Shown: positions 41,758 through 64,000 of the stretch, piece after piece
Position numbering within the stretch: the first letter of the stretch is position 1
Layout: every line of letters begins with the position of its first letter
Assembly: GCA_050251945.1 (NCBI GenBank)
Contig: JBFWLW010000004.1
Location: forward strand, 96,001 to 160,000
From: Deferribacterales bacterium
Lineage (GTDB): Bacteria; Chrysiogenota; Deferribacteres; Deferribacterales; Geovibrionaceae
Length of the DNA stretch: 64,000 nt
Direction of reading: 5' to 3'
Position numbers and translations under genes: made by a program
The notes under the pieces: model-generated
What the model saw: the letters and a program-made list of their open reading frames with translations, nothing else
Database searches by the model: none
Told to the model about the DNA's origin: nothing

Positions 41758-42525
41758 CTACAGGTGCATGTATTTTTCTGCCATGAGGATTGATATAAGC
41801 TGCTGACGCTTGGAAACGCCTGTTTTAGCGTAGATATTTTTCAGATGGAATTTAACGGTGTTTTCGCTGATGTTAAGAATTTTTGCAATTTCCCAGTTGG
41901 TTTTTCCATTCAGAATCCAGTGGCATGCCTCATGCTCCTTGTCTGAAAGGCAGTTTAAAAGGAGCACCACGTTAAGCCGCTTTCTTGCTGCCATAATGTG
42001 GGTGACAATTGCAGAAGTAATAGCGATTGTTCTGTTATCAGGCTGCTCTTTTGGGTCGGCAAATGAAATGAGAATCCCGAAGTCTTTTGAATCAGAAATT
42101 TCGTAAACTGAAAATCCATATTCCAGTCCGAATTGTTTTCTTATGCGGATAAGCTCTTTTTCGGATACGGAAAGCTTCCTTTCATAAGCATCCCAGATAA
42201 TAAATGATGCTTTTATGTTATTTTCAATCCGTTTTTCAAGCTCTATCCTGACAGGGTCGCACACGAGCAGGTTGTTTGTATTGTAAAATTCCATCCAGTC
42301 CTTCGGATTTGAAATGTTTATCATCCTGATGCTGTCTTCCGTGACATAATGGTGAGGAGTGTAGCAGCATAGCACATATCGGAACCCGATATATTCTGCG
42401 ATATCTTTTAAAAGATGTTCGAATTTTTCTTCCGATGTCATGTTAAGGCAAGTGTCGAATACAGATAGTATCATTTGAAGATCAGTTTCTTTCAGAAAGT
42501 TCAATTCCTGCCGTTCATCAGTCAT
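41758..42525 (-). CDS. LuxR-family regulator with autoinducer-binding domain
   Basis: NPKDWMEFY...DPV, W and G signature residues; HTH GKTNWEIAKILNISENTVKFHL. Confidence 0.92.
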   Translation of the reverse strand: MTDERQELNFLKETDLQMILSVFDTCLNMTSEEKFEHLLKDIAEYIGFRYVLCCYTPHHYVTEDSIRMINISNPKDWMEFYNTNNLLVCDPVRIELEKRIENNIKASFIIWDAYERKLSVSEKELIRIRKQFGLEYGFSVYEISDSKDFGILISFADPKEQPDNRTIAITSAIVTHIMAARKRLNVVLLLNCLSDKEHEACHWILNGKTNWEIAKILNISENTVKFHLKNIYAKTGVSKRQQLISILMAEKYMHL

Positions 42526-42536
42526 TTGTAATCCTA

Positions 42537-43274
42537 TTACAGGTTAAGATATTTTCCGGTCATAACAGCTGCCGTTGCCTGCTGTCTGTTCAGAACCCCG
42601 AGTTTTGTGCAGACACTTTGCATGTGATATTTAACAGTATTTTCGGCAATATTTAAATCATTTGATATCTCAATGTTGGATTTTCCCGCAAGAAGGTGTT
42701 CGCAAAGTAATTTTTCTTTGTCTGTGAGGGTATTGTATAGAAATACTATATCCAGACGTTTTCTTGCTGCGGTCATATGGTTTATGATTCTGAGCATAAA
42801 TTCCTCCATGCGGCTGTCAGCTGTCATGTTTCTGTCCGCAAAGGAAATGAGGAAAGTGAAATCTGAGTTCGACGAATCCTGATATACGGAAAAACCGTGA
42901 TTAAGTCCGTATGAACAGCGTTCATTTATCAGCTCAATCTCATATCGCGAGAGTTCTCTGTCAAATGAATCCCATTTTATGAATGAAGATTTTATCCCGT
43001 GTTGAAGCTTCAGTTCCATTTCAATGCGCACGGGGTCATTTGCCATATAATTGCAGGTTTGGTATTTAAGCATCCAGTCTGCCGGATTGGAAATGTTGAT
43101 AATATTAACAATTGAGCCTTTAGAATAGGAGATTTTGCAATAGCAGTAAAGAATGAACTGAAATCCCAGATAGTCGGCGGTTTCTCTGATGAGTCGGTGG
43201 TAGTCCTCTTCTGTCTGGATCCTGAAACATGAGTTGATTATGTATATAACCATAAGTAGATCATCTTTGCTCAT
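42537..43274 (-). CDS. LuxR-family regulator with autoinducer-binding domain (paralog)
   Basis: NPADWMLKY...DPV; HTH GKSNIEIS..LNIAENTVKYH. Confidence 0.92.
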   Translation of the reverse strand: MSKDDLLMVIYIINSCFRIQTEEDYHRLIRETADYLGFQFILYCYCKISYSKGSIVNIINISNPADWMLKYQTCNYMANDPVRIEMELKLQHGIKSSFIKWDSFDRELSRYEIELINERCSYGLNHGFSVYQDSSNSDFTFLISFADRNMTADSRMEEFMLRIINHMTAARKRLDIVFLYNTLTDKEKLLCEHLLAGKSNIEISNDLNIAENTVKYHMQSVCTKLGVLNRQQATAAVMTGKYLNL

Positions 43275-43384
43275 TGCCGTCTCCGCTTAAAGCCCCGATT
43301 ATTATATTATAACACTTTCACGAATTTTTCAGATGCCGGTTCTGACTGCAATCCATTTGCTATTACCGTGTCAGTTTTTTATTT

Positions 43385-43411
43385 AGACGAAACTGCGAGA
43401 ACATTGTTACA
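43385..43411 (-). promoter_or_regulatory. ECF-type promoter facing luxR genes
   Basis: TGTAAC-16 bp-CGTCT; same pattern at 62096-62122. Confidence 0.65.
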
Positions 43412-43453
43412 GACCATAATTCAGACTACTCGTCAGGTATTTGCTTAATCAAT

Positions 43454-43470
43454 CCAACTTTCGGGTAGGT
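43454..43470. promoter_or_regulatory. Candidate regulator-binding box (LuxR-type, inferred)
   Basis: CCAACTTTCGGGTAGGT, 14/17 identical to 62162-62178; imperfect palindrome. Confidence 0.45.
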
Positions 43471-43544
43471 ATGGTTCTTTTTCTTGATAGTGATGTTGGC
43501 GCTGTTATAACATTGAAGTGAAATGTAAGAACAAGAGGGGTTTC

Positions 43545-45026
43545 ATGCCTTGGTTATTACTTTATTCACTTCTGTTAAGTATTATTACAGTTTCAAATGT
43601 CAACGCAGAAAGTATTAAGCTTGAACAGGTTTTGTCTGTTGCGATGCAGAAGCAGGCAGACGTTCTCATACAGAAGCTGAACATAGATTACGCAAAAGGG
43701 AAGCGTTTGAGTTCTTCTTCAGCATTCGATGCCGTTTTGTCTGCATCGGCAGGTTACAAGGATGCTCAGTCCCCGCTGACAATTCAGCAGTCCGCCGCAT
43801 ATGGCATATCAACAGCGGACAGCCGTTTGCGGAGTTATATGGTTCAGCTTTCAAAGACCATGAGATCGGGGTTAAGCCTTACCGCAGAGATGAGTCTCTC
43901 AAATGAGATGGATGATACCTACGGAGCTTCGGATGACAATACCAGAACAGTGGGACTTACACTAGGAATCCCCTTTTTTGATCTTTTGGACGGTAATACC
44001 TCAAACTATGCTGAGAAATCAGCGGAAGAGGATGTGAAGTCTGCCATAGAATCGTATTACAGTCAGATAAGCCAAAGCATGTATCAAACCATGTCTGCAT
44101 GGTGGAATTTTACGGCGGCATATGAAGCTTATAAAATTTACAGGCAGAGTCAGCAGCTTAATGAGAAGTATTACGAAGACTACAAAAAGCTGGTTGAAAA
44201 GGATGAAAGACCCAGGTCGGATCTGATCCAGCTTCAGGCGAATATTGCTGTGATCAGCATGGAGACCAAGGCTGCGGAAAAGAGTTATGTATCTGCCGGC
44301 TATTCTCTTTGTTCGTCACTGGGTATTCCTTATGACAGAGAGAAGTTTCTCGATCCTGACACGAGTTGGATATCTTTTAATACGATTATTGAAAAGATAA
44401 ACGGGTATCTTGAAAACCCGTATGAAAGGCGGTTTGATATCCTTGCTGCTAAATCGGATGTCGAAAGTTCTTCCATTCTTATACGGGCGTATAAAAGAAA
44501 CCTGCGACCTGACGTGAATATAAATCTGTCTGCCGAAACCTCATCGAAAACCAAGAATGACCCGTTATATGATACGGACGGACGCAACAGAGGAAACACT
44601 CTTTCTGCGGAGGTCACATATTCCTTTCCCCTGTCGAATTCCTCAGCAAAAGGACTGCTTATGCAGCAGATGTCTCTGAGGCAGCAGAACCTTATTCAGT
44701 ATGAAGAGCTGAAGCGGGCAGCTGACATAGATATTGCGGACGCTGTTCAGGAGTTTCGTCTGGCTGTCGATTCGGTGGCGTTGGCGGAGCAGTCGGTTGC
44801 ATTTTATGAGCAGGCTTTGGTCACCGAGAAAAAGAAACAGGCTATCGGTATGAGCACGGTGCTTGATGTGCTGTCCACAGGGGACAGTCTGCGTGACGTG
44901 ATGCTTGAGAAGATAAGTTACCAGCTCAGTGCGGCTCTTGCCGCTGCAAAGCTCGCCTATGTCTCTGGAGCCATTCTTGAGGTGAGAGGCGGAGAGCTTA
45001 TTATTAACCGTGATTTCTTACCTTGA
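43545..45026 (+). CDS. TolC-family outer membrane efflux protein
   Basis: Signal peptide, ERRFDILAAK, GMSTVLDVL motifs; first gene of export operon. Confidence 0.85.
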   Translation: MPWLLLYSLLLSIITVSNVNAESIKLEQVLSVAMQKQADVLIQKLNIDYAKGKRLSSSSAFDAVLSASAGYKDAQSPLTIQQSAAYGISTADSRLRSYMVQLSKTMRSGLSLTAEMSLSNEMDDTYGASDDNTRTVGLTLGIPFFDLLDGNTSNYAEKSAEEDVKSAIESYYSQISQSMYQTMSAWWNFTAAYEAYKIYRQSQQLNEKYYEDYKKLVEKDERPRSDLIQLQANIAVISMETKAAEKSYVSAGYSLCSSLGIPYDREKFLDPDTSWISFNTIIEKINGYLENPYERRFDILAAKSDVESSSILIRAYKRNLRPDVNINLSAETSSKTKNDPLYDTDGRNRGNTLSAEVTYSFPLSNSSAKGLLMQQMSLRQQNLIQYEELKRAADIDIADAVQEFRLAVDSVALAEQSVAFYEQALVTEKKKQAIGMSTVLDVLSTGDSLRDVMLEKISYQLSAALAAAKLAYVSGAILEVRGGELIINRDFLP

Positions 45027-45035
45027 GGAGGGTGT

Positions 45036-46295
45036 ATGTCTGAGATATTCAGAAGAAAGTCGCTGGAGAAACTTGCCTCTCCCGACAAACTGGATGAGCT
45101 TATGCTGGTCACCGATGCCAAAGGGTGGCTTGCTCTTCTGGCTTTGGGGCTTATTATTGCACTGGCAGTTTTCTGGGGTTTTTTCAGTACAATACCCGAA
45201 AAAGTTGACGGACTTGGTATTTTTCTACGTCCGGAAGGGCTTGCCGATGTGATTGCTCCTTCAACCGGACAGGTTAAGGATATATACGTCAGCACGGGTG
45301 ATATTATCAAAAAAGGCTATCCGGTTGCAAGGATAAACCAGATGGAACTTCTTGCTGAAATAAAAGACCTGCGGAGCGTAATAAACGACCTTAAATTTAA
45401 CCTCGAAAATCTTAAAAAAGCAGAAACTCAATCTGTTTCCATGAAACAGTCAATGAGCACACAGCGAAAAGTAGCTATCCATGAGAAGGTTCTGAATCTC
45501 CGAAAACAGGAAGCATGGCTGAAACAGAAGATAGAAAACCAGAAAAAACTTTACGATGACGGGCTTATCACGTGGCAGACCCTGATTGATTCACAGTCTA
45601 ATCTTGATTCTGTCAGACAGCAGATCAGTGACGCGGAGAGTTCACGCAGTCAGGATGAAATGGAGCTTCATGAGAGATTCGGTCAGAAGGACAAGCAGGT
45701 TGAAGACCTGAACACGCAGATTGCCCAGAAGGAGCGGGAGCTTGAGAAACAGCTGCTTGCTCTGGACAATTCTTCAAAAATAATAAGTCCTTACAACGGG
45801 CGGATTGTGGAGCTTAACGTTGACAGGGATTCTATGGTGAGTAAAGGCTCCCCTATAGCCCGGATAGAGATAAGCGACGACAGCATCAAGAACCTCGAGG
45901 CGGTGATGTATTTTCCGCCTATGCAGGGTAAAAAGGTTAAACCCGGAATGCGGGTCAATATTTCTCCGTCAACTGTCAAGCAGGAGGAATATGGCTTCAT
46001 CGTCGGTATCGTCACTTTTGTGTCCGAGTTTCCGGTGTCGTCTTCCGCCATGGAAAGTACATTACATAACGATTCTCTGGCTCAGAATTTCACCCAGAGC
46101 GGCGCCCCTGTCGAAATAAGAGCCGATCTCATACCCGATCCTTCAACACCAAGCGGATTTAAATGGTCTTCACGCAAAGGACCGGACATAACCATTGAAA
46201 CAGGGACTCTCTGCACTGCGAGCGTCGCTGTTTCGGAGCAAAAGCCTATAAATCTGGTTGTCCCGCTGTTTAAAAAATATGTTTTGGGCAGATAG
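45036..46295 (+). CDS. NHLM bacteriocin-system HlyD-type secretion protein
   Basis: IFRRKSLEKLASPDKLD, EEYGFIVG.V..VS.FP, SGFKWSSRKGP motifs. Confidence 0.9.
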   Translation: MSEIFRRKSLEKLASPDKLDELMLVTDAKGWLALLALGLIIALAVFWGFFSTIPEKVDGLGIFLRPEGLADVIAPSTGQVKDIYVSTGDIIKKGYPVARINQMELLAEIKDLRSVINDLKFNLENLKKAETQSVSMKQSMSTQRKVAIHEKVLNLRKQEAWLKQKIENQKKLYDDGLITWQTLIDSQSNLDSVRQQISDAESSRSQDEMELHERFGQKDKQVEDLNTQIAQKERELEKQLLALDNSSKIISPYNGRIVELNVDRDSMVSKGSPIARIEISDDSIKNLEAVMYFPPMQGKKVKPGMRVNISPSTVKQEEYGFIVGIVTFVSEFPVSSSAMESTLHNDSLAQNFTQSGAPVEIRADLIPDPSTPSGFKWSSRKGPDITIETGTLCTASVAVSEQKPINLVVPLFKKYVLGR

Positions 46296-46298
46296 ATC

Positions 46299-48470
46299 AT
46301 GAAAATTCCGTTTATATCGTCCGGAACAAAAAATTATACCAAAACTCCGACGACCCTTCAGATGGAGGCGGTGGAGTGCGGGGCTGCGTGTCTCGCCATG
46401 ATCCTTGATTATCACGGATTAAAAGTTCCGCTTGAGATTGTAAGGCAGGACTGCGGCGTCTCGAGAAACGGAAGCAAAGCCAGCAATATGGTTAAAGCTG
46501 CACGAAAATACGGTCTTGATGCAAGGGGATACAGAAAAGAAGTCGGCGAGCTTCAGACCATGAAGATGCCTGTCATAATCTTCTGGAATTTCAATCACTT
46601 TGTGGTGCTTGAAGGATTCAGGAACGGCAAAGCGGTTCTTAATGACCCCGGTGTGGGCAGACGTTTTATCGAAATGGACGATTTTGACGATTCATACACA
46701 GGCGTAACTCTGACCTTTAAGCCGACGAAGAGTTTTGTCAGAGGCGGCGAATCCGGATCAATGTATAAAGCTCTTCTTGAGAGATTCCGCGGTTCGGAGA
46801 TTGCCGCGGCATACGTCATTCTGGCGGGGCTGTTTCTTGTTATACCGGGGCTTGTGATCCCCGCGTTTTCAAAGATTTTTGTGGACAGTATCCTTGTCGG
46901 CGGAATGGATGACTGGCTGCGCCCATTGCTGTTCGGCATGGCTGCAACTTTTCTCGTGAGGGGCGGGCTGACATGGCTCCAGCAATATTACCTTCTGCGG
47001 TTTGAAACCAAACTGGCAACTGTTTCCACCGCAAAATTCCTTATCCACGTCCTCAGACTTCCCATTACATTTTTTGCCCAGAGGATGCCCGGCGAGATCG
47101 TCAGCCGCATCCAGCTCAACGATGTGGTGGCGAACCTCATAGCAAACCAACTGACTGTGAACGTTATCAATCTGATGATGGTGGTGTTCTACACCGCTGT
47201 GATGTTCTATTACGATGTAATGCTGACGATTACCGGCATTCTGATAGCTCTCATAAACATTGGGATGCTTAAGCTGGTGTCATCTAAACGAATAATATTA
47301 AACCAGAAATTCCAGATGGAGGGTGGAAAGCTTATCGGAATCTCCATGTCCGGACTTTCCATGATAGAGCCGCTCAAGGCGAGCGGCGGTGAATCTGATT
47401 TCTTTGCGAAATGGGCAGGTCAGCAGGCAAAGGTAATAAACACACAACAGCAGCTGGCGGTTCCGACACAGCTTCTTATGGTGATGACTCCTTTTCTGAT
47501 GAGCGTCAACACGGTTGTAGTTCTGGGGTTTGGCGGGTTAAAGGTCATGAACGGCGAAATGACACTTGGTATGCTGGTGGCATTTCAAAGCCTTATGGCA
47601 AGTTTTATGACTCCGTTTAATCAGATAGTGAACATGGGTTCGACACTCCAGCAGACTGTTTCTGATGTGAACAGGCTGGATGATGCCATGCGCTATAAAG
47701 AGGATATCAGGTTTTCTGAATCACATGTTGTTTCCATGTCCGATAAGCTTGAAGGCGGTCTTGAGCTGAAAGACATCAGTTTTGGCTACAGCAGCCTGGA
47801 AGAGCCTCTCATAAGAGAATTCAGTGTTAAGCTGAACAAGGGGCAGCGTGTTGCCATTGTCGGCGGCTCCGGTTCGGGCAAATCCACTGTGGCGAAACTG
47901 GTCAGCGGGCTATATGAGCCATGGGGCGGTGAGATACTTTATGACGGATATAAAATCAGAGAGATAGAGGATTCCGCTCTTTACGACTCCATCGCAATGG
48001 TGGATCAGGATATTTTCATGTTTGAAGGTACTGTGCGGGACAACATAACCATGTGGGACAGCACGATTTCCGATGCTGACGTTCTTAAAGCCGCAAAGGA
48101 TGCCTGTATCCATGAAGATGTTGCGATACGCCCCGGTGCGTACCGCAGCAGAGTGGAAGAGGGCGGCGGCAATTTCAGCGGAGGGCAGAGACAGAGGCTT
48201 GAGATAGCGCGGGCACTGGTGCGCAATCCTTCCATACTTATTCTGGATGAAGCCACAAGCGCACTGGATGCGCAGACTGAAATGGATGTGGTGGATAATA
48301 TCAGAAAGCGGGGCGTGACCTGTCTGATCGTGGCGCACCGTTTAAGCACAATAAGGGACAGTGACGAGATCATTGTTATGGATAACGGGCTTATAGTCCA
48401 GAGGGGAACCCACGAAAGTATGATTTCCGGGGAGGATAAGCCGTATGCGCAACTCATCAGATCATACTGA
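46299..48470 (+). CDS. NHLM-type ABC exporter with C39 peptidase domain
   Basis: QMEAVECGAACL, WNFNHFVV, GGSGSGKS, FSGGQRQR, LDEATSALD. Confidence 0.95.
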   Translation: MKIPFISSGTKNYTKTPTTLQMEAVECGAACLAMILDYHGLKVPLEIVRQDCGVSRNGSKASNMVKAARKYGLDARGYRKEVGELQTMKMPVIIFWNFNHFVVLEGFRNGKAVLNDPGVGRRFIEMDDFDDSYTGVTLTFKPTKSFVRGGESGSMYKALLERFRGSEIAAAYVILAGLFLVIPGLVIPAFSKIFVDSILVGGMDDWLRPLLFGMAATFLVRGGLTWLQQYYLLRFETKLATVSTAKFLIHVLRLPITFFAQRMPGEIVSRIQLNDVVANLIANQLTVNVINLMMVVFYTAVMFYYDVMLTITGILIALINIGMLKLVSSKRIILNQKFQMEGGKLIGISMSGLSMIEPLKASGGESDFFAKWAGQQAKVINTQQQLAVPTQLLMVMTPFLMSVNTVVVLGFGGLKVMNGEMTLGMLVAFQSLMASFMTPFNQIVNMGSTLQQTVSDVNRLDDAMRYKEDIRFSESHVVSMSDKLEGGLELKDISFGYSSLEEPLIREFSVKLNKGQRVAIVGGSGSGKSTVAKLVSGLYEPWGGEILYDGYKIREIEDSALYDSIAMVDQDIFMFEGTVRDNITMWDSTISDADVLKAAKDACIHEDVAIRPGAYRSRVEEGGGNFSGGQRQRLEIARALVRNPSILILDEATSALDAQTEMDVVDNIRKRGVTCLIVAHRLSTIRDSDEIIVMDNGLIVQRGTHESMISGEDKPYAQLIRSY

Positions 48471-50628
48471 TAAAACAGGTCATTCGCGTAAACTTGACGA
48501 TGCGGTACTTAATGCCGCATTCAGGCGTATGACAGGGGTTATGGACAGGCGAATTGTTGAAACAGAGCCTTCCGATGATCCTGTGTTTGTTGCCGCCGCA
48601 GAGGTTGCGGGGGAGATGGGTTTTTCAATTCCGAATCTGCCTTATGACACAAACTGTTCCAATGTGGAAAAGCTGAAACAGATAGCAAGAATCGGCGGGT
48701 TTAGAACCAGAAACGTTCTGTTGGAGGGTGAGTGGTGGAAATCTGACTGCGGCATTCTGTTCGCTTTCACCCAAAACGATGAACCGGTGAGCCTCTTAAA
48801 AAGGAAATCCGGTTCATATATAATGAAAAACACTGTAACCGGAGAGGTTTCTGCCGTTAACAGACAGGTTGCAGACACTCTGGATCCTCTTGCCGTAACA
48901 TTTTATAAACCGTTTCCATCCAAACCGCTTAAGTTCATGGATATTTACAGGATGACTGTCAAAGAGAACAGGAGCGACTTTTTGTCTATTGCTGTGATCG
49001 GCACGATAGGCGGTCTGATAGGTGTGGTCACTCCCATGGTTTCCGGGGTCATTTTTGACGACATAATTCCGTCGGCAGAGCGGAGCAGGCTTTTTGATTT
49101 TATTCTTATTCTGTTCTGTCTGGCGTTTGTCAATGCACTTTTCGGCATAACAAAGGGACTTTGTTCTGTAAGAATTCAGAGCAGAATCAACAACACTGTC
49201 CAGTCTGCCCTTTGGGACAGACTGCTTGCCCTGCCTGTTCCGTTTTTCAGAAGTTATACGTCAGGCGAGCTGGCGAGCAACAGTCTGGGAATAAACGGCA
49301 TAATACAGGCTCTTTCCGGCGTGACGATGAATGCCATTCTGTCGACTATCTTCTCAATATTCTACCTGTTTCTGCTTTTTTACTACAATGCGGGGATGGC
49401 GGTAATCGCGATACTGATGTCGCTTCTGACAGTGCTGATATCTGCCGGAATCGGTATGTATAAGGTGAAAAGGCAGGGAGAGAGCGTCATAGCTGATAAC
49501 AAATCAGCAGGTTTTCTGTTTCAGGTGATGTTTGGAATTTCAAAAATCAGAATCACGGGAGCATATAAACGTGCTTTCGGGAAATACAGTCTGTTGTTTA
49601 CAGAGAAAAAAACCGCAGATATCAGGATGGGCGGAGCGGAAAACATTGTTGTAACCATAAATGCGATGATACCCATCATAACCAGCATGGTTTTATACGG
49701 CTGGATGTCTGTGAAGGTTGAGAATGTCACTACCGGTCAGTTTATTGCTTTTCTTTCAGCGTTCAGCTCATTTCAGACCTCACTTTTGTCAATGACCGAA
49801 TCGGTCATGACCTCGCTGAAAGTTGTGCCGCTGTATAAAAACATGCAGCCAATAATAGAGACCATGCCTGAGTTTGATGAAGTGAAGGGAATTCCAGATG
49901 GAATCAGAGGCGGAATTTCTGTCAGTCAGGTGAGCTTCAGGTACAGTGCGGATTCGCCGCAGATACTTTCTGATGTGTCCATTGAGGCGAAACACGGTGA
50001 GTTTGTTGCCATTGTAGGCGGGTCTGGTTCCGGAAAATCCACGCTGCTGCGCCTTCTGCTTGGATTTGAAAAACCGGAATCGGGAACTGTTTTTTATGAT
50101 GACCATGATCTGGACACTCTGGATGTGCTTGAGGTACGCAGACAGCTCGGCGTTGTTTTGCAGAACGACGTGCTCATTCAGGGCAGCATTATGGAGAATA
50201 TTGTTGGTCAGTCGGGCAGGCTGACTATTAACGACGCATGGTATGCGGCGGAGATGGCGGGGATTGCGGAGGATATAAAACAGATGCCTATGGGAATGCA
50301 CACGATGATTCCTGCGGGAGGTTCCGGAATATCCGGCGGTCAGAAACAAAGACTTATCATCGCACGGGCACTGGTTAAGAAACCGGCTCTTTTGTTGTTT
50401 GACGAAGCCACAAGTGCGCTGGACAACAAAACACAGGCGGAAGTCAGCAGAAATATCGAAGCGTTGCAAGTCACAAGAATAGTAATAGCCCATCGCCTTT
50501 CTACGATCCGCAATGCTGACAGAATATATGTTTTGGAAAAGGGACGTATTGTTCAGTGTGGGACATTTGACGAACTTATGGCACGGGACGGGCTTTTCCT
50601 GAAACTATCAAGGAGACAGATCGCATGA
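48445..50628 (+). CDS. NHLM-type ABC exporter, second subunit without catalytic C39 motif
   Basis: RNVLLEGEWWKSDCG degenerate N-domain; GGSGSGKS, ISGGQKQR, FDEATSALD. Confidence 0.93.
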   Translation: MRNSSDHTDKTGHSRKLDDAVLNAAFRRMTGVMDRRIVETEPSDDPVFVAAAEVAGEMGFSIPNLPYDTNCSNVEKLKQIARIGGFRTRNVLLEGEWWKSDCGILFAFTQNDEPVSLLKRKSGSYIMKNTVTGEVSAVNRQVADTLDPLAVTFYKPFPSKPLKFMDIYRMTVKENRSDFLSIAVIGTIGGLIGVVTPMVSGVIFDDIIPSAERSRLFDFILILFCLAFVNALFGITKGLCSVRIQSRINNTVQSALWDRLLALPVPFFRSYTSGELASNSLGINGIIQALSGVTMNAILSTIFSIFYLFLLFYYNAGMAVIAILMSLLTVLISAGIGMYKVKRQGESVIADNKSAGFLFQVMFGISKIRITGAYKRAFGKYSLLFTEKKTADIRMGGAENIVVTINAMIPIITSMVLYGWMSVKVENVTTGQFIAFLSAFSSFQTSLLSMTESVMTSLKVVPLYKNMQPIIETMPEFDEVKGIPDGIRGGISVSQVSFRYSADSPQILSDVSIEAKHGEFVAIVGGSGSGKSTLLRLLLGFEKPESGTVFYDDHDLDTLDVLEVRRQLGVVLQNDVLIQGSIMENIVGQSGRLTINDAWYAAEMAGIAEDIKQMPMGMHTMIPAGGSGISGGQKQRLIIARALVKKPALLLFDEATSALDNKTQAEVSRNIEALQVTRIVIAHRLSTIRNADRIYVLEKGRIVQCGTFDELMARDGLFLKLSRRQIA

Positions 50629-54511: not shown

Positions 54512-54532
54512 TAATTTCGACAGGAGGAAGTC

Positions 54533-54886: not shown

Positions 54887-54962
54887 AGCATACATGTAAA
54901 TAATGACTGGCAAAAAGTAACAGCTTTGAAGGATGCAATTGTGAAGACACTGGAGGCATATT

Positions 54963-55322: not shown

Positions 55323-55398
55323 AGCATACATGTAAATAATGACTGGCAAAAAGTAACAGCTTTGAAGGATGCAATTGTGAAGATACTGGAGGCATATT

Positions 55399-55758: not shown

Positions 55759-55834
55759 AGCATACATGTAAATAATGACTGGCAAAAAGTAACAGCTTTG
55801 AAGGATGCAATTGTGAAGATACTGGAGGCATATT

Positions 55835-56177: not shown

Positions 56178-57536
56178 ATGGCAAAATATGCGGTTTTGAA
56201 TAAAGACTGGGCTTTGCGCGGCTGGACGACACTTGAAAAAGCGGCAGTTAATACCGTAAGCGGGCGTGTTGTTCCTCTTGTAAACAGGGCGGACTATGTT
56301 TTAAGGTCGTGTGACGGTAAAACGGATTTTGAAATGCCTATTTTTCTGGATACGCATCTTGAAATTCTCAACATCCTCGAAAAACAAAAGATTGTAACGA
56401 TTATGGATACCGAATCTTCAATTCAGCCGTACCAAAAGTTCAGAAAGGCTGAATGCCCGTATGTAATGAATGTGCATTGGGCGATAACCGGCAGGTGTAA
56501 TCTGAAATGTATGCATTGTTTCATGGAGTCACCGTCAATAAGGTCGGATAATCCGACATTTAAACAGATTGAGACGACAGTAAAAAGTTTCATCGAGGCT
56601 AATGTGCCTGCCGTGAGTCTGACAGGCGGTGAGCCGCTGATTAGAAAAGACCTTTTTGACATAATTGCTTTGCTGAACAGCGAACATATTGCAGTCAGAC
56701 AGATTTATACCAACGGAATACTTATTACAGAAGAGATTCTTAAAAAATTTGAGGCATTGCCTTTTAAAGTTCAGTTTAATGTCAGCTTTGACGGTGTCGG
56801 CTGGCACGACAGAATGCGTGGACTGAAAGGAACAGAAGAAAAGACTCTGCGAGCCATACGGATGATCAAAGAGGCGGGGCATGAGCTTTGCGTTGCAACA
56901 ACTATTGACAGATTGAGTGTCGTAAGTCTGTTTGAAACATATGAGACGATGAAACAGTATGGTGTGGGAGTGTGGCGGATAATGACTGCGGAGGATAGCG
57001 GAAACTGGCACGAACACAGAGACCTTTCGCTCACGTTAGACGAGGAACTGAAAGCATATTCGCCATTGTTTAAAAGATGGCATGAAGACGGGCACCCGAT
57101 GGTGGTTCAGTTCGGGTATCTTTTTGACGGACGGAAAGAGGGTTTCGAAGAATTTAAACCTCCGGTAACCATTAAACACGACGCAAAAAGCAAAGCATGT
57201 TCAACATGTGCATATTCCACATATCTTGGTCCGGAAGGAAAACTGCTCCCGTGCCATATTTATACCGGAACTGAACTTGAAAAACAGCTTCCAAGTATTT
57301 ATGAGGTCGGTTTTGCGGGAGCATACAATAACGAACTTCTGCGCAGCATCAATGATATGACAATCGGAGACCTGTTCGGAGAAAATCCGGAATGCGAAGG
57401 ATGTGCTCATCTCGAACGCTGCGGAATAGGCTGTCGGGCGAAAGCGTATTCAGACTACGGCAAGGTTACTGCCAAAGACGGGCAGATGTGTGCTGTAATG
57501 CTCAACAAATATACCGAGAGAATGCAGGAAATATAG
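56178..57536 (+). CDS. Radical SAM/SPASM peptide maturase with probable N-terminal RRE
   Basis: CNLKCMHC, LTGGEP, SPASM Cys set (CSTC, LLPC, CEGC, C-GIG-C, QMC); AAGGAG RBS before ATG 56178. Confidence 0.9.
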   Translation: MAKYAVLNKDWALRGWTTLEKAAVNTVSGRVVPLVNRADYVLRSCDGKTDFEMPIFLDTHLEILNILEKQKIVTIMDTESSIQPYQKFRKAECPYVMNVHWAITGRCNLKCMHCFMESPSIRSDNPTFKQIETTVKSFIEANVPAVSLTGGEPLIRKDLFDIIALLNSEHIAVRQIYTNGILITEEILKKFEALPFKVQFNVSFDGVGWHDRMRGLKGTEEKTLRAIRMIKEAGHELCVATTIDRLSVVSLFETYETMKQYGVGVWRIMTAEDSGNWHEHRDLSLTLDEELKAYSPLFKRWHEDGHPMVVQFGYLFDGRKEGFEEFKPPVTIKHDAKSKACSTCAYSTYLGPEGKLLPCHIYTGTELEKQLPSIYEVGFAGAYNNELLRSINDMTIGDLFGENPECEGCAHLERCGIGCRAKAYSDYGKVTAKDGQMCAVMLNKYTERMQEI

Positions 57537-57545: not shown

Positions 57546-57824
57546 ATGTCAGCTGAAAAAGTTAAAGAGTTTTTCAAACGTCTGGAAGATGACGAGGCAT
57601 TCAGAGATGATTTCCTGAAAGACGAAACACTTGAAAAGGAGAACACCGAAGCGGTTTGCAAGGCAGCTGCTGCAAGAGGTTATGAGTTTTCTGCCGGTGA
57701 CTTTAAAGCGGCAAAGGAAGAGATGAAAGATATTGAGCTTAGTCATGATCAGCTTGAGAAAGTCAGCGGAGGAGGGGATGTTTATAATGACTCTGATAAT
57801 TGTATGGTTGCGATGAAGTCCTGA
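57546..57824 (+). CDS. Nif11-leader precursor 8
   Basis: GG-GDVYNDSDNCMVAMKS. Confidence 0.88.
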   Translation: MSAEKVKEFFKRLEDDEAFRDDFLKDETLEKENTEAVCKAAAARGYEFSAGDFKAAKEEMKDIELSHDQLEKVSGGGDVYNDSDNCMVAMKS

Positions 57825-57873
57825 AATACAAAATTTTTGAGAAAGGCAATTGTGAAAAACAGGAGGACATACC

Positions 57874-58221
57874 ATGTCAGTTGAAAAAGTTAAAGAATTT
57901 TTCAAACGTCTGGAAGATGACGAGGCATTCAGGGATGATTTCCTGAAAGACGAAACACTTGAAAAAAGCAACACCGAAACAATCTTCAGCGCTGCCGCTG
58001 CAAGAGGCTACAAATTTTCTGCCGATGATCTTAAAGCTGCTAAAGAAGAGATGAAAGATACGGAGCTTACTAATGATCAGCTTGATAAGGTCAGCGGAGG
58101 GGTTGGGCTTGGCATATGTTTTGTGTATGGCATTGGTTTGTTTGGTGTTTCAGACGGAGAAAACAATGCCGTAATTGAGGGAGTTACAGCTGGTGTCTGT
58201 TTTGGTGTCGGATTTAATTAA
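57874..58221 (+). CDS. Nif11-leader precursor 9
   Basis: GG-VGLGICFVYGIGLFGVSDGENNAVIEGVTAGVCFGVGFN. Confidence 0.9.
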   Translation: MSVEKVKEFFKRLEDDEAFRDDFLKDETLEKSNTETIFSAAAARGYKFSADDLKAAKEEMKDTELTNDQLDKVSGGVGLGICFVYGIGLFGVSDGENNAVIEGVTAGVCFGVGFN

Positions 58222-58237
58222 GGTCAAGGAAAGTTTT

Positions 58238-58585
58238 ATGTCAGTCGAAAAAGTAAAAGAATTTTTTAAACGTCTGGAAGATGACGAGGTATTCAGAGAT
58301 GATTTCCTTAAAGACGAAACACTCGAAAAAGGCAATACTGAAACAATCTTCAGGGCTGCCGCTGCACTGGGTTATGAGTTCTCAGCTGATGATCTTAAGG
58401 CTGCAAAAGAAGAAATGAAAGATATTGAGCTTACTAATGATCAGCTTGAGAAGGTCAGCGGCGGGTTTGGTTTCGCTTTTTGTGTGGGATACGGATATGG
58501 ATATTGGACTGTAGTTGATAACGACAATACTGCGTCCGGTTCCGGAGGAGCCGTTGCTTTTTGTCTCGGTTTTGGATTCAACTAA
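58238..58585 (+). CDS. Nif11-leader precursor 10
   Basis: GG-FGFAFCVGYGYGYWTVVDNDNTASGSGGAVAFCLGFGFN. Confidence 0.9.
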   Translation: MSVEKVKEFFKRLEDDEVFRDDFLKDETLEKGNTETIFRAAAALGYEFSADDLKAAKEEMKDIELTNDQLEKVSGGFGFAFCVGYGYGYWTVVDNDNTASGSGGAVAFCLGFGFN

Positions 58586-58596
58586 GGAGAATAATT

Positions 58597-58911
58597 ATGT
58601 CAGTTGAAAAAGTTAAAGAATTTTTCAAACGTCTGGAAGATGACGAGGCGTTCAGAGATGATTTCCTTAAAGACGAAACACTCGAAAAAGGCAACACCGA
58701 AGCGGTTTGCAAGGCAGCCTCTGCGAAGGGTTATGAGTTTTCTGCCGATGACCTTAAAGCTGCAAAAGAAGAGATGAAAGATACGGAGCTTAGTCATGAA
58801 CAGCTTGATAAGGTCAGCGGAGGGGTATCATGCTCATCTTCTACAGCTTTTACCGACACCTGTGACGCTATAATGACGGCTATGCTGGAGGATATGGGAT
58901 TGTTGAAGTGA
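58597..58911 (+). CDS. Nif11-leader precursor 11
   Basis: GG-VSCSSSTAFTDTCDAIMTAMLEDMGLLK. Confidence 0.9.
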   Translation: MSVEKVKEFFKRLEDDEAFRDDFLKDETLEKGNTEAVCKAASAKGYEFSADDLKAAKEEMKDTELSHEQLDKVSGGVSCSSSTAFTDTCDAIMTAMLEDMGLLK

Positions 58912-58992
58912 TAGTTTTCTGCATACGCTTAATATAGTGGCAAAAAGTAAAAGCTTTGAAGGATGCAATTGTGAAAAACAGGAGGACATACC

Positions 58993-59280
58993 ATGTCAGC
59001 CGAAAAAGTTAAAGAATTTTTTAAACGTCTGGAAGATGACGAGGCGTTCAGAGATGATTTCCTTAAAGACGAAACACTCGAAAAAGGCAACACCGAAGCG
59101 GTTTGCAAGGCAGCCTCTGCGAAGGGTTATGAGTTTTCTGCCGATGACCTTAAAGCTGCAAAAGAAGAGATGAAAGATACGGAGCTTACTGATGAACAGC
59201 TTGATAAGGTAAGCGGAGGGACTACTTATTGGCTTTTAAATTGCCAGACGGTTATGTTTCATTGGGTTTCTGGAGAATAA
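58993..59280 (+). CDS. Nif11-leader precursor 12
   Basis: GG-TTYWLLNCQTVMFHWVSGE. Confidence 0.9.
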   Translation: MSAEKVKEFFKRLEDDEAFRDDFLKDETLEKGNTEAVCKAASAKGYEFSADDLKAAKEEMKDTELTDEQLDKVSGGTTYWLLNCQTVMFHWVSGE

Positions 59281-59282
59281 TT

Positions 59283-59579
59283 ATGTCAGTTGAAAAAGTT
59301 AAAGAATTTTTCAAACGTATGGAAGATGACGAGGCGTTCAGGGATGATTTCCTGAAAGACGAAACACTCGAAAAAGGCAACACTGAATCAGTTTGCAAGG
59401 CTGCCGCTGCAAGAGGCTACGAGTTCACAGCTGATGATCTTAAGGCTGCAAAAGAAGAGATGAAAGATACGGAACTTACTTATGAACAGCTTGATAAGGT
59501 AAGCGGCGGTTTTAAGATCGGTTGGTGTTGGGTAACCGGTACTGCTCCTTGGTGTCTCTTAGTGGGATTCGGAGAATAA
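59283..59579 (+). CDS. Nif11-leader precursor 13
   Basis: GG-FKIGWCWVTGTAPWCLLVGFGE. Confidence 0.9.
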   Translation: MSVEKVKEFFKRMEDDEAFRDDFLKDETLEKGNTESVCKAAAARGYEFTADDLKAAKEEMKDTELTYEQLDKVSGGFKIGWCWVTGTAPWCLLVGFGE

Positions 59580-59581
59580 TT

Positions 59582-59911
59582 ATGTCAGTTGAAAAAGTTA
59601 AAGAATTTTTCAAACGTATGGAAGATGACGAGGCATTCAGGGATGATTTCCTGAAAGATGAAACACTTGAAAAAGACAATACGAAAGCAATTTTCAGAGC
59701 TGCCGCAGCAAGGGGGTATGAGTTTTCCGCTGAAGACCTTAAGGCGGCGCAGGACGAAATGAAAGCAACAGAACTTTCGGATGAGGAGCTTGAGAAGATC
59801 CGCGGCGGCTCATACGGCGTCGGTTTTTGTTTCAGGTATGGTGTGTTAGTGTCCAGTGAGGGTGTTGTTTTCGATACTTACGCCGTGTGTTTTACCCTCG
59901 GGTATTATTGA
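59582..59911 (+). CDS. Nif11-leader precursor 14
   Basis: GG-SYGVGFCFRYGVLVSSEGVVFDTYAVCFTLGYY. Confidence 0.9.
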   Translation: MSVEKVKEFFKRMEDDEAFRDDFLKDETLEKDNTKAIFRAAAARGYEFSAEDLKAAQDEMKATELSDEELEKIRGGSYGVGFCFRYGVLVSSEGVVFDTYAVCFTLGYY

Positions 59912-59978: not shown

Positions 59979-60986
59979 TTAATTGACGGGAATGCCAAGC
60001 GCAGCACGAACCTTTTCAGGGTAATGTTTCTCATAAAAGAAGTAGTTTGAAAACAGCAGAATATCGTTTCCTGCACCTCTGGCCAGTTTAACCGTATTCT
60101 CAAAGCTGTAGTTGTCGGCGATTGCCCCCATCTGAAGATCATCACTTATTACAAACCCTTTGAAACCCATATTGTGAAGCAATGAGATTGTCTTTTCTGA
60201 CAAAGTTGCAGGGTAGTAGGGATCAATCTTTGAATTATAAACATGCGCTGTCATGATCATGTCGGCATAGCCGTCCGCGATAAGCCTTCGGAACGGCTCA
60301 AGCTCAATACTGCTCCATGTTTCGGAAACATCAGTGAACCCCTGATGCGAATCCTTCTTTGCGCTGCCATGACCGGGGAAATGTTTAAGGCAGGTCAGGA
60401 TGCCGTATTTTCTGTGGGCATTGATAAAAGCTTTCGCGTATTCAACCACAACATCTGCATCGGCAGAATAACTCCTCTCTTTTGCGCCGATTACAGGTGA
60501 TTCAGGATTGATATTAAGGTCTGTTACAGGGGCAAAATTAACGTTAAAACCAACGTCTGCAAGGTCTCTTGCGGTGAGTTCATATATTTGTTCAGCCTGA
60601 TCCGGTGTCATATTGCTGGAAATATATTGAGCCGTCGGCTCTTCCGTAAACCCCTTTTCAACGGTCAGTCTCTGCACTTTGCCGCCCTCTTCGTCAACTG
60701 CGATTAAAAGCGGGACGAACGAATGATTATGGCTGTTAAGCTCTGCAATAAGCCGCTTAACCTGTTTTCTGGACTCAATGTTATAACCATAGAACACAAC
60801 ACCGGCAACAAGACCTTTTTCAATCTGATCCTTAAGCTCTTTAAGTTCACTATCTTTATAGTCTGTGGCATGGAAACCGACCATGACCATGCGCTTTGAC
60901 ACAACATTTTTATCTATTGCGGATGTGTCGGCAAATGAGCTGTAAAATGTTGATAATATAAATATAATAATAGACAATTTTTTCAC
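59979..60986 (-). CDS. Exported GH3 beta-N-acetylhexosaminidase (NagZ-like)
   Basis: Signal peptide; DEEGGKVQRL, KHFPGHG, SDDLQMGA. Confidence 0.88.
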   Translation of the reverse strand: MKKLSIIIFILSTFYSSFADTSAIDKNVVSKRMVMVGFHATDYKDSELKELKDQIEKGLVAGVVFYGYNIESRKQVKRLIAELNSHNHSFVPLLIAVDEEGGKVQRLTVEKGFTEEPTAQYISSNMTPDQAEQIYELTARDLADVGFNVNFAPVTDLNINPESPVIGAKERSYSADADVVVEYAKAFINAHRKYGILTCLKHFPGHGSAKKDSHQGFTDVSETWSSIELEPFRRLIADGYADMIMTAHVYNSKIDPYYPATLSEKTISLLHNMGFKGFVISDDLQMGAIADNYSFENTVKLARGAGNDILLFSNYFFYEKHYPEKVRAALGIPVN

Positions 60987-61050: not shown

Positions 61051-61413
61051 TTAATAATTAATGCCCAAAACAAAGCATACTCCGTAAGTGACTGTGGTTT
61101 CATTGGAAATCGTGGTCATGTCGGCCGCAACTCCGTCAGTGAAAAAACCGTATCCCCAAATGAAACATATTGCGGCTCCCCAGCCGCCTCCTGCTATCCT
61201 TTGCAGTTCTTCTTCAGACAGTTCAGAGTTTTTTAGCTCTTCTTTCGCCTGGTTGAGGTCTTCAGTTGTAAACGGATAACCTGCCTGTGCTGCCGCATCC
61301 AGAATTGAGTCGGGGTTGCCTTTTTCCAGTTTTTCGTTTTTCAGAAAAACGTTGCGGAAATCCTCTTCCTCTTCGATTCGTTTGAAAAACGCTTTTACGT
61401 TCTCAACTGACAT
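61051..61413 (-). CDS. Nif11-leader precursor 15
   Basis: GG-GWGAAICFIWGYGFFTDGVAADMTTISNETTVTYGVCFVLGINY. Confidence 0.9.
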   Translation of the reverse strand: MSVENVKAFFKRIEEEEDFRNVFLKNEKLEKGNPDSILDAAAQAGYPFTTEDLNQAKEELKNSELSEEELQRIAGGGWGAAICFIWGYGFFTDGVAADMTTISNETTVTYGVCFVLGINY

Positions 61414-61468
61414 AAATTTCTCCTTGTAATAATTTGATAAAGTAACCTAAGACACAAGAGTGACTATG

Positions 61469-61744
61469 TTACGAGTTAATGCCTATCGGAGAGCATTTGC
61501 CACTGATCAGTGGGATCCCGCCTGCAACTTTTTGAAGTTGGTCATCGGTAAGTTCAATGTTGTTGATTTCATTCTTGGCAAGCTCAAATTCTTCCTTTGT
61601 GAAAGGATAACCGACATCGCCGGCCGCTTTAAAAACCGAATCAGGATTCTCTTTTTCAAGTGATTTGTGCTGCACTAATTCGCTGCGGAAATCCTCATCC
61701 GTTTCCAGACGGCTAAAGAACGCTTTAACGTTTTCAATTGACAT
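61469..61744 (-). CDS. Nif11-leader precursor 16
   Basis: GG-IPLISGKCSPIGINS. Confidence 0.88.
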   Translation of the reverse strand: MSIENVKAFFSRLETDEDFRSELVQHKSLEKENPDSVFKAAGDVGYPFTKEEFELAKNEINNIELTDDQLQKVAGGIPLISGKCSPIGINS

Positions 61745-61796
61745 AGATTCTCCATAAAGCTCAGTCAGTCGACGGCTTCTGCCTTAGACTGCAATT

Positions 61797-62063
61797 TTAG
61801 TTGACTATATTGCCGCAGCCGTAAACATAACTCATTCCTCCGCTGACCTTATCAAGCTGGTCTTCGGACAGTATTCTGTTATTGATTTCGTTTTTGGCAA
61901 TTTCAACTTCCTCAGCAGTGAAAATGAATCCTGCCTGCGCTGCCAGCGTTATGACAGATCCGATATTATCTTTTACCAATCTGTCATTTTTTAAGAATTC
62001 TTCTCTGAAATCTTTGTCCTCTTCCAGACGTTTAAAGAATGCATTTGCGCTTTCAATTGACAT
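61797..62063 (-). CDS. Nif11-leader precursor 17
   Basis: GG-MSYVYGCGNIVN. Confidence 0.88.
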   Translation of the reverse strand: MSIESANAFFKRLEEDKDFREEFLKNDRLVKDNIGSVITLAAQAGFIFTAEEVEIAKNEINNRILSEDQLDKVSGGMSYVYGCGNIVN

Positions 62064-62095
62064 TGTTCTCTCCTTACAGGCTGTTCTACATATTC

Positions 62096-62122
62096 AGACG
62101 ACAAAACCATCCGGCAGTTACA
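62096..62122 (-). promoter_or_regulatory. ECF-type promoter for minus-strand precursor operon
   Basis: TGTAAC-16 bp-CGTCT, 32 bp upstream of precursor 17 start. Confidence 0.65.
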
Positions 62123-62215
62123 TGGATATTTATTTTATCAGGATATGATTTATAAACTCAACAAACTATAGGGTAGGTTTGCGCTGATCGCCCGTAACTT
62201 AAACGCCGGTAAATC

Positions 62216-64000
62216 CTATTTGTCGGAAGTCAGAAACAGAAATATACCGGAAGCGAGCAGAAAAAGAAGTCCTACCGCAAAAAGCCCCTTGTCCATAGCT
62301 GTGAAGGAGAACAGTGCGCCCAGAATCAGAGGACCCAGCATCTGACCGAGTTTGTCGGTCGTTCTCTGGAGGCTCACGGCAGATCCGGTTCCGATATATT
62401 TTGACGCTTCCTGTTCATAAGCGTAGACCATCTGCGTCGAACCGAGAATACTGCTGGAAATACCCATGAGGAACAGTGCGACCCCGACGGCAGCGACTCC
62501 CTTTATCATTATTATGATCAGGAGACTGATTCCGCCTATCGCCCCTCCGGTGAAGATCACAAGTCTGCGTTTGTGCCTGAATCTGTCGGAGAGTCTGCCG
62601 ATGTAAGGTGAAAGGTAGACAACGGTTGCTCCGTAGACCATCATAACCCTGCCTATGTTCGATTGACTGACGTTCAGGCTGTGCAGATAAACAGGTGTTG
62701 CAAACAGCAAAAGCCCCATCTGGCAAAGGGAGTAGGGAATGATTGAAAAAGTGAACACCGCAAAAATCCTTTTATCGGAAACATATTGATGCATCTGAGC
62801 TAGGGTTTCATAAATCGGAACGGAAAATGAACCGTGCGGTTTTTCGAAGTATGATTTCATAAAGATAAGCGTAAAAATAAGGGGTATGGTCATCAATGCC
62901 GCAGAACACCAGAATACCGCCGTGAAGCCTATTCTTTCGGCTAACATTGCGCCGACCGCACCGCCTGAAATATGTCCGGTAATTATTCCGGCAACGAGTG
63001 ATGCCGTGTTTGCCGATCTGTTTTCATTATCGGAATTTTTCAGCACGAAGGTGATGGCTGCCGTCCATGTAAGCCCGTATCCTGCACCCGATACGCACCT
63101 TGCGAAAATAAAGGATGATACGTCGGATGCGGCGGCAGAGAAAGCCGCCCCCATAAGGCTGACTGCGCAGCCTGCTATGAACGGTTCCTGCCAGCCCCGC
63201 CTGTCCATCCACCAGCCTGCAAGAAAAATCATGGGAAGAGTGGCGGTTATTTCCGCCGAAACGGGGAGGCTGCTTAAAAACTGCGAGAATGAGGACATAA
63301 CTCCGGATGCCGCTACGAGGCTTTTCATATGCAGCGGGATAAAGGACACTGCAAAAGTTGATGCAAAAAGATATGTCGCGGCTGCCGTGCGCATGAGTTT
63401 CGGTTCGCCTTGTTCTGACGCCGCCGCATTAACACTTTTCCTTGTGAATGCGAAGAGGAAAATGAGAAGTTCCGTCGCGAACATCAGCGATATGACAAAA
63501 ATAGTCAGCCCGTCCATCAGCAGTTTGCGGCTGATATCGCCGAGATATTTATCGGAAACGCTCACGCGTATAAACCCATCGATCTTGTTTTGTCCTCCGA
63601 AAGTGTTTTTGATTGGTTTCAGATCAGTTATATCTGCTGAAACAGATTTTACGGATTCAGTTGTATAGAGCAGCTTCATTCCCGAATCGAAAATGTCGGA
63701 TGAGCCTATTTCGGGAGTGTATGATGTAACCTTTTTCTGGGATTCGTTTATGCCCGCCAGTTTTGAAATCCGCACTCCTTTGGAAAGGAGCATCTCGATA
63801 TCTTTTCTGAACGACTGTTCGATAAACCCGGCGTTCACGGCGGCGTGCGCTCTGTTTTCATGCTCCGATTTGGATGAGATCAGGCAGATGAACACTATCT
63901 GGCTCAGAACCACGATTCCGATAACCGATGCGGCTACGGCGCCCCTTGAAAAACCTTCAGAGAGGCTGTGCCTGAAAAAGAGTTTCAGCAGAAGAAGCAG
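62216..64000 (-). CDS. MFS transporter with additional N-terminal membrane/periplasmic region (5' partial)
   Basis: GWWMDRRG, GRLSDRF, LGQMLGPLILG; frame stays open to window edge. Confidence 0.8.
   Translation of the reverse strand: MLLLLKLFFRHSLSEGFSRGAVAASVIGIVVLSQIVFICLISSKSEHENRAHAAVNAGFIEQSFRKDIEMLLSKGVRISKLAGINESQKKVTSYTPEIGSSDIFDSGMKLLYTTESVKSVSADITDLKPIKNTFGGQNKIDGFIRVSVSDKYLGDISRKLLMDGLTIFVISLMFATELLIFLFAFTRKSVNAAASEQGEPKLMRTAAATYLFASTFAVSFIPLHMKSLVAASGVMSSFSQFLSSLPVSAEITATLPMIFLAGWWMDRRGWQEPFIAGCAVSLMGAAFSAAASDVSSFIFARCVSGAGYGLTWTAAITFVLKNSDNENRSANTASLVAGIITGHISGGAVGAMLAERIGFTAVFWCSAALMTIPLIFTLIFMKSYFEKPHGSFSVPIYETLAQMHQYVSDKRIFAVFTFSIIPYSLCQMGLLLFATPVYLHSLNVSQSNIGRVMMVYGATVVYLSPYIGRLSDRFRHKRRLVIFTGGAIGGISLLIIIMIKGVAAVGVALFLMGISSSILGSTQMVYAYEQEASKYIGTGSAVSLQRTTDKLGQMLGPLILGALFSFTAMDKGLFAVGLLFLLASGIFLFLTSDK

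Follow-up and report, generated by a model that had tools for sequence, protein, structure and literature searches.

How do two modifying enzymes and a single export system serve seventeen precursor peptides? The question is raised by a 64,000-nt stretch of the genome of a Deferribacterales bacterium (assembly GCA_050251945.1, contig JBFWLW010000004.1, positions 96,001 to 160,000 of the forward strand; hereafter the window), which carries a locus for peptides that are ribosomally synthesized and then post-translationally modified (RiPPs), with Nif11-type precursors, two radical S-adenosylmethionine (SAM) enzymes, namely a PoyD-family epimerase and an enzyme with a SPASM domain, and a peptidase-containing exporter. 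A sequence-only reading of the window had proposed a radical-SAM-based combinatorial peptide system. The multi-precursor Nif11 locus with radical SAM enzymes as its only modifying type is indeed there, but the idea that both enzymes act on all precursors fares less well, as the two kinds of precursor travel separately elsewhere. We instead favour, at roughly even chances, an arrangement of two precursor classes, two separate modification lines, and one shared exporter, an all-by-all combinatorial system being less likely. The locus itself is a real, intact, and lineage-restricted RiPP island.

Seventeen precursor open reading frames (ORFs), encoding 16 distinct proteins, were identified between positions 51471 and 62063, with 14 on the plus strand and three on the minus strand, in agreement with the sequence-only reading. 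The leader ends in a double-Gly motif in all 17, followed by cores of 12-44 aa. Every one of the 16 distinct proteins passes the cut-off of the Pfam Nif11 model PF07862 (the identical copy was not scanned separately), and 14 of the 17 exceed that of TIGR03798 outright, the other three doing so only with neighbouring sequence. Because family scores exceed curated cut-offs and all Nif11 matches of this 3.07-Mb genome (99.97% complete) are confined to a single locus, the Nif11 locus stands beyond chance; across 68 genomes of the phylum, only the present one has Nif11 matches.

Within this array, two classes can be distinguished. Two precursors combine tandem Nif11 domains with cores devoid of Cys, and their genes directly precede the epimerase gene, while the remaining 15 have one Nif11 domain and 1-4 Cys per core. 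Single leaders from the plus strand are 71-96% identical to each other and those from the minus strand 42-61% identical to them, and either half of the doubled leader shares 16-34% identity with any single leader. We found no doubled Nif11 leader described in the open-access literature, which, here and below, is represented by the accessible parts of the papers cited. Neither the doubled leaders, nor the core-less Nif11 protein with a ligase-fold enzyme, nor the island boundaries presented below had featured in the sequence-only reading.

An array of this size could also be mostly a by-product of leader-driven duplication, with few true substrates and the rest drifting copies. A near-exact tandem duplicate (54963-55398 and 55399-55834, with a single difference in 436 nt), unrelated cores behind leaders of up to 96% identity, and some cores of only 12-19 aa would all fit such a history; public contigs collapse the duplicate, and neither confirm nor refute its second copy. 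We nevertheless consider this scenario very unlikely, as all 17 frames are intact and nearly all are preceded by a purine-rich ribosome-binding-like stretch, every single-leader core holds at least one Cys, and six cores keep a two-motif layout despite differing sequences. Under the two-line arrangement, too, the array likely grows by duplication and by recombination between near-identical leaders.

The first of the two enzymes, previously read as a PoyD-like epimerase, scores 336.7 bits against TIGR04517, above the cut-off of 325, and has 186 relatives at E<=1e-30 among 7,999 candidates scored. The features considered for PoyD-type enzymes were the TIGR04517 match, a CxxxCxxC motif, an H-donor Cys (PoyD Cys372), a C-terminal RiPP recognition element (RRE), and L-to-D conversion (mechanism from PMC8326336). 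In an alignment of 33 rows, the CxxxCxxC motif is invariant, as are two more Cys at positions 341 and 360, and the C-terminal 79 aa gave no Pfam match of note. The enzyme is predicted to convert residues of the two hydrophobic peptides with doubled leaders to D-amino acids.

The radical SAM/SPASM enzyme, likewise present as first proposed, is harder to place. It falls below the cut-off of every model among its 25 best NCBIfam matches, and none of 54 aligned relatives scores better than E 3e-37 against any NCBIfam model. Membership of the StsB family was rejected, with 90.4 bits against a cut-off of 625 for NF045574. The enzyme belongs to a family of at least 189 relatives (E<=1e-40) that carry 12 phylum labels in the tree set, where some contigs are possibly mis-binned. 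No description of this family was found in the open-access literature, although supplementary datasets of PMC10288494 and PMC8784127 may list the group as a prediction. Its predicted structure (pLDDT 94.5) aligns from residue 3-9 onward with the RRE-bearing SuiB and SkfB (Z 26-27), in support of a fused RRE. By sequence, neither this enzyme nor the epimerase has a close solved structure. Hence, the locus combines an RRE-associated radical SAM/SPASM enzyme with Cys-bearing precursors, the combination used to recognize sactipeptides and ranthipeptides. Seven auxiliary-cluster Cys are retained in 53-54 of the 54 aligned rows. Since Cys is the recurring feature of the cores, thioether formation is the best reading of the chemistry, and the enzyme likely forms Cys thioether rings, ring size and acceptor being less sure. 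When the 27 Cys of the 14 distinct Cys cores were inspected by eye, the residue at Cys+4 was Gly in 15 cases, Ala in five, Ser in one, and another residue in six, a tally that comes without a chance test and from cores in which Gly is frequent; in six cores, two CxxxG motifs flank a variable linker (by eye).

Several other observations weigh against a thioether assignment, or at least against a fixed ring geometry. The best structural matches, anSME, SkfB, CteB, ChlB, and SuiB, are tied at Z 26-28 and 14-19% identity and differ in chemistry, so that the SPASM fold does not by itself give the chemistry. Thioether enzymes are known to leave one cluster site open, which could here be occupied by an eighth Cys (position 344), present in 39 of 54 rows. 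A quick tree places the enzyme in a supported clade with five relatives, all of which lie outside the loci viewed. On inspection by eye, it is rather the other main branch of the family that typically has CxxxG cores, and several sister groups display Cys at other spacings; given this dependence on branch, no single ring size or acceptor can be assigned to the family as a whole. Finally, at the six positions of the active site taken from PMC10288494 and assigned by motif analogy, the enzyme has F, T, Y, S, H, and I, an ambiguous profile that agrees with StsB at two of six and with CteB at three of six.

These points leave room for a non-thioether activity, such as tyramine excision at XYG, an aromatic cross-link, or Cys oxidation, with Cys pairs passing into disulfides or to another enzyme. 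We regard this as distinctly improbable. The enzyme reaches only 77.7 bits against a cut-off of 725 for TIGR04103, which we take to be the model covering spliceases. Eight of the 14 distinct cores lack XYG yet all hold Cys, five of them having a single Cys and thus no possible internal disulfide, and Cys recurs in the cores of relatives. On the same TIGR04103 score, and with XYG in only six of 14 cores (by eye), a spliceotide was rejected as a product class. These six cores do nonetheless fit a non-thioether activity, as spliceases act at XYG of Nif11 precursors (PMC10849128), and the mixed active-site profile and the structural matches to anSME, SuiB, and ChlB, level with those to thioether enzymes, point the same way.

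Related loci bear on whether the two enzymes work apart. We fetched 77 loci around SPASM relatives (from the best 80 of 148 matches) and 67 around epimerase relatives (from the best 80 of 102 matches), and a precursor-like ORF was detected in 71 and 44 of these, respectively. Inspected by eye, SPASM loci display one-domain leaders and mostly Cys-rich cores, some being Cys-free, and epimerase loci display long Ala/Val/Leu/Gly cores, often with two leader-domain matches, in arrays of up to 12. All 20 best matches of the doubled leader among related precursors come from epimerase loci, compared to three and seven of 20 for two single leaders. An epimerase occurs in one of the 77 SPASM loci, and a SPASM relative in none of the 67 epimerase loci. 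As counterweights to this separation, the two sets are best-match subsets drawn from different collections, only 19 of the 67 epimerase loci are at least 10 kb long, and many share one assembly prefix, so that the epimerase loci are not independent. In addition, one locus (L024) has an NHLP exporter and, behind it, a single Nif11 precursor with two Cys and then both enzymes, so that the two enzymes can plausibly work on one peptide.

This last case is one argument for cross-talk, the alternative closest to the sequence-only reading, in which the epimerase acts on Cys cores too and yields hybrids that combine D-residues with thioether rings. In proteusins, epimerases appear to be promiscuous and independent of the leader (PMC8326336), five Cys precursors sit between the two enzyme genes with spacers of <80 nt, and Gly alternating with hydrophobic residues is abundant in six cores (by eye). 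Set against this are the near-absence of co-occurrence in related loci, the lack of Cys in doubled-leader cores, and the low identity between leader classes, and we hold cross-talk to be an unlikely alternative. In one direction the constraint is stricter, since doubled-leader cores without Cys preclude a true all-by-all scheme if the SPASM chemistry needs Cys.

The related loci also include several variants in their own right. In L024 (8039-11344), a SagB-type dehydrogenase lies upstream of the two-Cys precursor, the epimerase, and the SPASM relative, making a minimal cross-talk system. L096, L098, and L157 are epimerase-only libraries, in which 1-2 epimerases are accompanied by 6-12 Nif11 precursors that are hydrophobic and in many cases carry a doubled leader. 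In L064 and L076, a distant SPASM relative is flanked by seven and ten Nif11 precursors, respectively, which are long, rich in Cys, and show a recurring multi-Cys layout. Other SPASM loci (L014-L017, L019, L021-L023, L027, L029, L031-L034, L036, L058) carry a Nif11-like precursor without double-Gly and no NHLP exporter was seen in them, so this branch is possibly non-secreted. Another set (L035, L038, L040, L060, L066-L068, L071, L073, L080, L081, L086) clusters 2-5 SPASM paralogs with 1-2 short Cys-rich precursors of near-constant C-terminus, none being detected in L066.

Taken together, the two-line arrangement would operate as follows. On one line, the epimerase would introduce D-amino acids into the two doubled-leader hydrophobic peptides. 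On the other, the RRE of the SPASM enzyme would bind the near-constant single leader, and a radical made four residues after Cys, mostly at Gly, would give a sulfur-to-alpha-carbon bond, closing Cys thioether rings in the fifteen single-leader peptides. The C39-ABC exporter would then cut all precursors at their double-Gly motif and export the cores via HlyD and TolC. The products may form a hypervariable arsenal against competitors, controlled by two LuxR proteins and an extracytoplasmic function (ECF) sigma factor; we infer this competitive, bacteriocin-like role from the exporter family and the variability of the cores. The genes concerned and their neighbours are listed in Table 1.

Table 1. 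Features of the island and its left border (window positions unless prefixed C4, which denotes positions on the contig)
Feature	Position	Strand	Remarks
tRNA-Arg	39299-39374		Left neighbour of the island
41-nt exact copy of tRNA-Arg 3' half	41661..41701	+	Likely attachment-site remnant, left edge of the island
LuxR regulator with autoinducer-binding domain	41758..42525	-	PF00196 and PF03472
Second LuxR regulator with autoinducer-binding domain	42537..43274	-	
TolC-like outer-membrane efflux protein	43518..45026	+	PF02321
NHLP-system HlyD adaptor	45036..46295	+	TIGR03794, 373 (cut-off 156)
C39 peptidase-ABC exporter	46299..48470	+	TIGR03796, 1053 (cut-off 853); catalytic Cys, His, and Asp motifs kept
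Second NHLP ABC subunit	48445..50628	+	TIGR03797, 858 (cut-off 709)
ECF sigma factor	50625..51158	+	PF04542 and PF08281
99-aa ORF, outside the 17 precursors	51155..51454	+	4-nt overlap with sigma gene; double-Gly leader-like motif and 13-aa acidic tail at its end
Precursor, doubled Nif11 leader	51471..52034	+	39-aa Cys-free hydrophobic core
Precursor, doubled Nif11 leader	52081..52635	+	36-aa Cys-free hydrophobic core
PoyD-family radical SAM epimerase	52673..54139 (alternative start 52649)	+	TIGR04517
Five single-Nif11 Cys precursors	54170..56143	+	At 54170, 54533, 54963, 55399 (duplicate), and 55835
Radical SAM/SPASM enzyme	56178..57536	+	N-terminal RRE-like domain; no named family
Seven single-Nif11 Cys precursors	57546..59911	+	At 57546, 57874, 58238, 58597, 58993, 59283, and 59582
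NagZ-like glycoside hydrolase family 3 (GH3) protein	59979..60986	-	PF00933; secreted-looking; inside precursor array
Three single-Nif11 Cys precursors	61051..62063	-	Leaders more divergent
768-aa major facilitator superfamily (MFS) transporter	62216..64000 (3' part); whole gene C4:158216-160522	-	Extra N-terminal part of ~380 aa
ABC-type binding protein	C4:160506-161630	-	Beyond the window
LivK-like binding protein	C4:161627-162808	-	Beyond the window
GCS2-fold ligase (glutamate-cysteine-ligase-like)	C4:162833-164314	-	Beyond the window
63-aa core-less Nif11 protein	C4:164359-164550	-	Beyond the window; no double-Gly motif; C-terminal Gln; directly upstream of ligase

The export system had been read from the sequence as C39-ABC, ABC, HlyD, and TolC components, and each has its family match: three NHLP-system models are passed within one cluster, with the C39 catalytic residues in place, which identifies an NHLP/Nif11 export system, and the TolC-like protein matches its Pfam model. 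Dedicated regulators had also been proposed, and are present as two LuxR proteins with autoinducer-binding domains and one ECF sigma factor; a profile search found no LuxI, in a test whose control matched nowhere. The 99-aa ORF behind the sigma gene has no Pfam match and only weak anti-sigma look-alikes, all below naming thresholds. As judged from its sequence and position, it is a possible anti-sigma protein, and through its leader-like motif the exporter peptidase, or an enzyme that binds leaders, could exert feedback on transcription. No leader-tailed anti-sigma protein was found in the open-access literature, and no comparable ORF lies directly behind any of the 11 ECF genes of the related loci. 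With 29% over 66 aa and a pairwise E of 0.001, a short leader-motif ORF in L041 resembles it weakly. Similar motifs also occur in short ORFs near ECF and SPASM genes in L037, L041, L042, and L055, which are close kin, and near a SPASM gene in L050 and L052.

The minus-strand run that extends beyond the window comprises the core-less Nif11 protein, the GCS2-fold ligase, two periplasmic binding proteins, the MFS fusion, three precursors, and the GH3 hydrolase. The MFS fusion adjoins the two binding proteins without ABC permeases, and a LivK-like relative is present in six of the 144 related loci. The ligase displays a weak sequence match to plant-type glutamate-cysteine ligases (E 9e-5) and a strong match of its predicted structure to a GCS2 cluster (TM 0.94). 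It has only nine relatives at E<=1e-10, and when used as query was found in one of 68 genomes of the phylum and in none of the 144 related loci. In two cases, cluster members of a SPASM relative (54%) and of a ligase relative (51%) lie on contigs of the same size (263,261 and 127,046 nt), which suggests, without proving, that the SPASM enzyme and the ligase travel together. The core-less Nif11 protein and the ligase may resemble Pup and its ligase-fold enzymes. That they form a third tailoring line is speculation, and a plain role in thiol supply, or in uptake with the binding proteins, is equally possible.

A more ambitious joint reading would make the locus a three-line factory, in which the SPASM enzyme forms rings of five residues, from Cys to Gly, across 15 unrelated cores, the doubled leader addresses peptides to the epimerase, and the core-less Nif11 protein is a carrier or adaptor for a ligase that adds an amide-linked group. 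Its library would be the first of prochlorosin style in nature to owe its cyclisation to radical chemistry. Tailoring with an amide-linked group by a GCS-fold ligase is described for no RiPP in the accessible literature compared, and we put the joint reading forward tentatively, as unlikely to hold in full.

The sequence-only reading had anticipated that the locus might continue past position 64000, and it runs to ~68,760 (window numbering extended along the contig), giving an island of 27,060 nt with a GC content of 44.6%, compared to 46.6% for the genome. In a genome of the same genus (G034), synteny holds up to position 40779 and resumes at 68762, with 11 kb of different DNA in between, and in three further genomes (G033, G036, G037) synteny breaks at or just after the tRNA-Arg. 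We infer that the island was acquired horizontally at a tRNA hotspot. The stretch between 39299 and 41701 holds the tRNA-Arg, a Schlafen/AlbA-HATPase gene, an Abi_C gene, and the 41-nt tRNA repeat, and looks like a small defence-like insertion; relatives have different DNA at this site. Two landfill-metagenome runs from the same study contain near-identical DNA, and one of them is possibly the source sample itself; two other runs (X3, X4) contain only small shares, in scattered pieces that are a few per cent divergent and too thin for a strain-level array. The sequencing runs listed with this DNA include no RNA dataset. When the minus-strand part was scanned for promoters and terminators, the counts were near those of shuffles (19 vs 16.0 +/- 4.6; 17 vs 10.9 +/- 4.0).

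No characterised cluster matching the locus was found, in line with the sequence-only reading, which could assign it to no described product class. It would work like a prochlorosin library joined to a proteusin-like epimerase line and appears to be a member of neither. With prochlorosins (ProcM/SyncM with Nif11 ProcA arrays), it shares many Nif11 precursors with constant leaders and hypervariable Cys cores. Prochlorosin arrays comprise up to 16 consecutive genes (PMC10783134) and constitute a natural library from one promiscuous enzyme (PMC8784127), but that cyclase is a LanM, whereas the candidate here is the radical SAM/SPASM enzyme. A prochlorosin or class II lanthipeptide is disfavoured, no LanM-type gene being found among the island ORFs. 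The absence of LanM stated earlier thus holds for the island, and LANC_like has no match in the genome, but its control matched none of 14 genomes and that absence is therefore weaker. The reported lack of YcaO is firmer, with no match in the genome and a control matching five of 14 genomes, and on this basis an azole-containing peptide was rejected. With proteusins (PoyD, OspD, AvpD, PlpD), the locus has in common a TIGR04517 epimerase, hydrophobic cores, and an NHLP-type exporter (PMC8326336), but proteusin leaders are nitrile-hydratase-like and those here are doubled Nif11 domains. A strict proteusin was rejected, as the precursors match Nif11 models and no NHLP model at E<=0.001. Nor were genes for a methyltransferase, a lanthionine synthetase, or an arginase seen in the island.

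Among sactipeptides, StsA/StsB and BlaA/BlaB likewise combine an RRE-associated SPASM enzyme with a conserved Cys upstream of a conserved Gly, and Cys-to-Gly sactionines are precedented in StsA and BlaA (PMC10288494). StsA, however, has nested CxCxCx4GxGxG hairpins, whereas here the CxxxG motifs are isolated, the leaders are of Nif11 type, the RRE is fused, and the precursors number 15. Multi-precursor libraries, as well as Nif11/radical-SAM clusters in anaerobes, are already known, and any novelty of the general architecture does not hold. Such clusters, with Nif11 precursors, a peptidase-ABC exporter, and radical SAM enzymes but no cyclodehydratase, have been in print since 2014 (Letzel et al., PMC4289311), and Nif11 arrays of 9-16 are known (PMC6363468, PMC10783134). 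The 2014 clusters are genome predictions with 1-3 precursors each, compared to 17 in two classes here. Nif11 precursors with a three-gene exporter and paralogous expansion had been defined before (PMC2887384), and large parts of a survey of 2,346 NHLP/Nif11 clusters are without known product (PMC8784127). Comparable arrays are the lah cluster of Lachnospiraceae C6A11, with nine Nif11 precursors of diverse cores (PMC6363468, in which LahT150 cleaves seven of seven Nif11 precursors tested, their cores being diverse), and the dpr cluster of Desulfotomaculum, with seven NHLP precursors of diverse cores and a lanthionine synthetase (PMC12537861). The accessible parts of these reports, which for lah cover the protease only, mention no such radical SAM pair.

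Should 15 unrelated cores that follow one leader indeed be cyclised by the SPASM enzyme, the latter would be a radical macrocyclase with natural promiscuity, the equivalent of ProcM among radical SAM enzymes, and a function would be given to an unnamed family. With two leader classes and two enzymes in one locus, the island offers a direct test of substrate routing by long folded leaders, and of whether Nif11 doubling is an address label. The epimerase line, in turn, hints at hydrophobic peptides rich in D-amino acids as a set yet to be explored.

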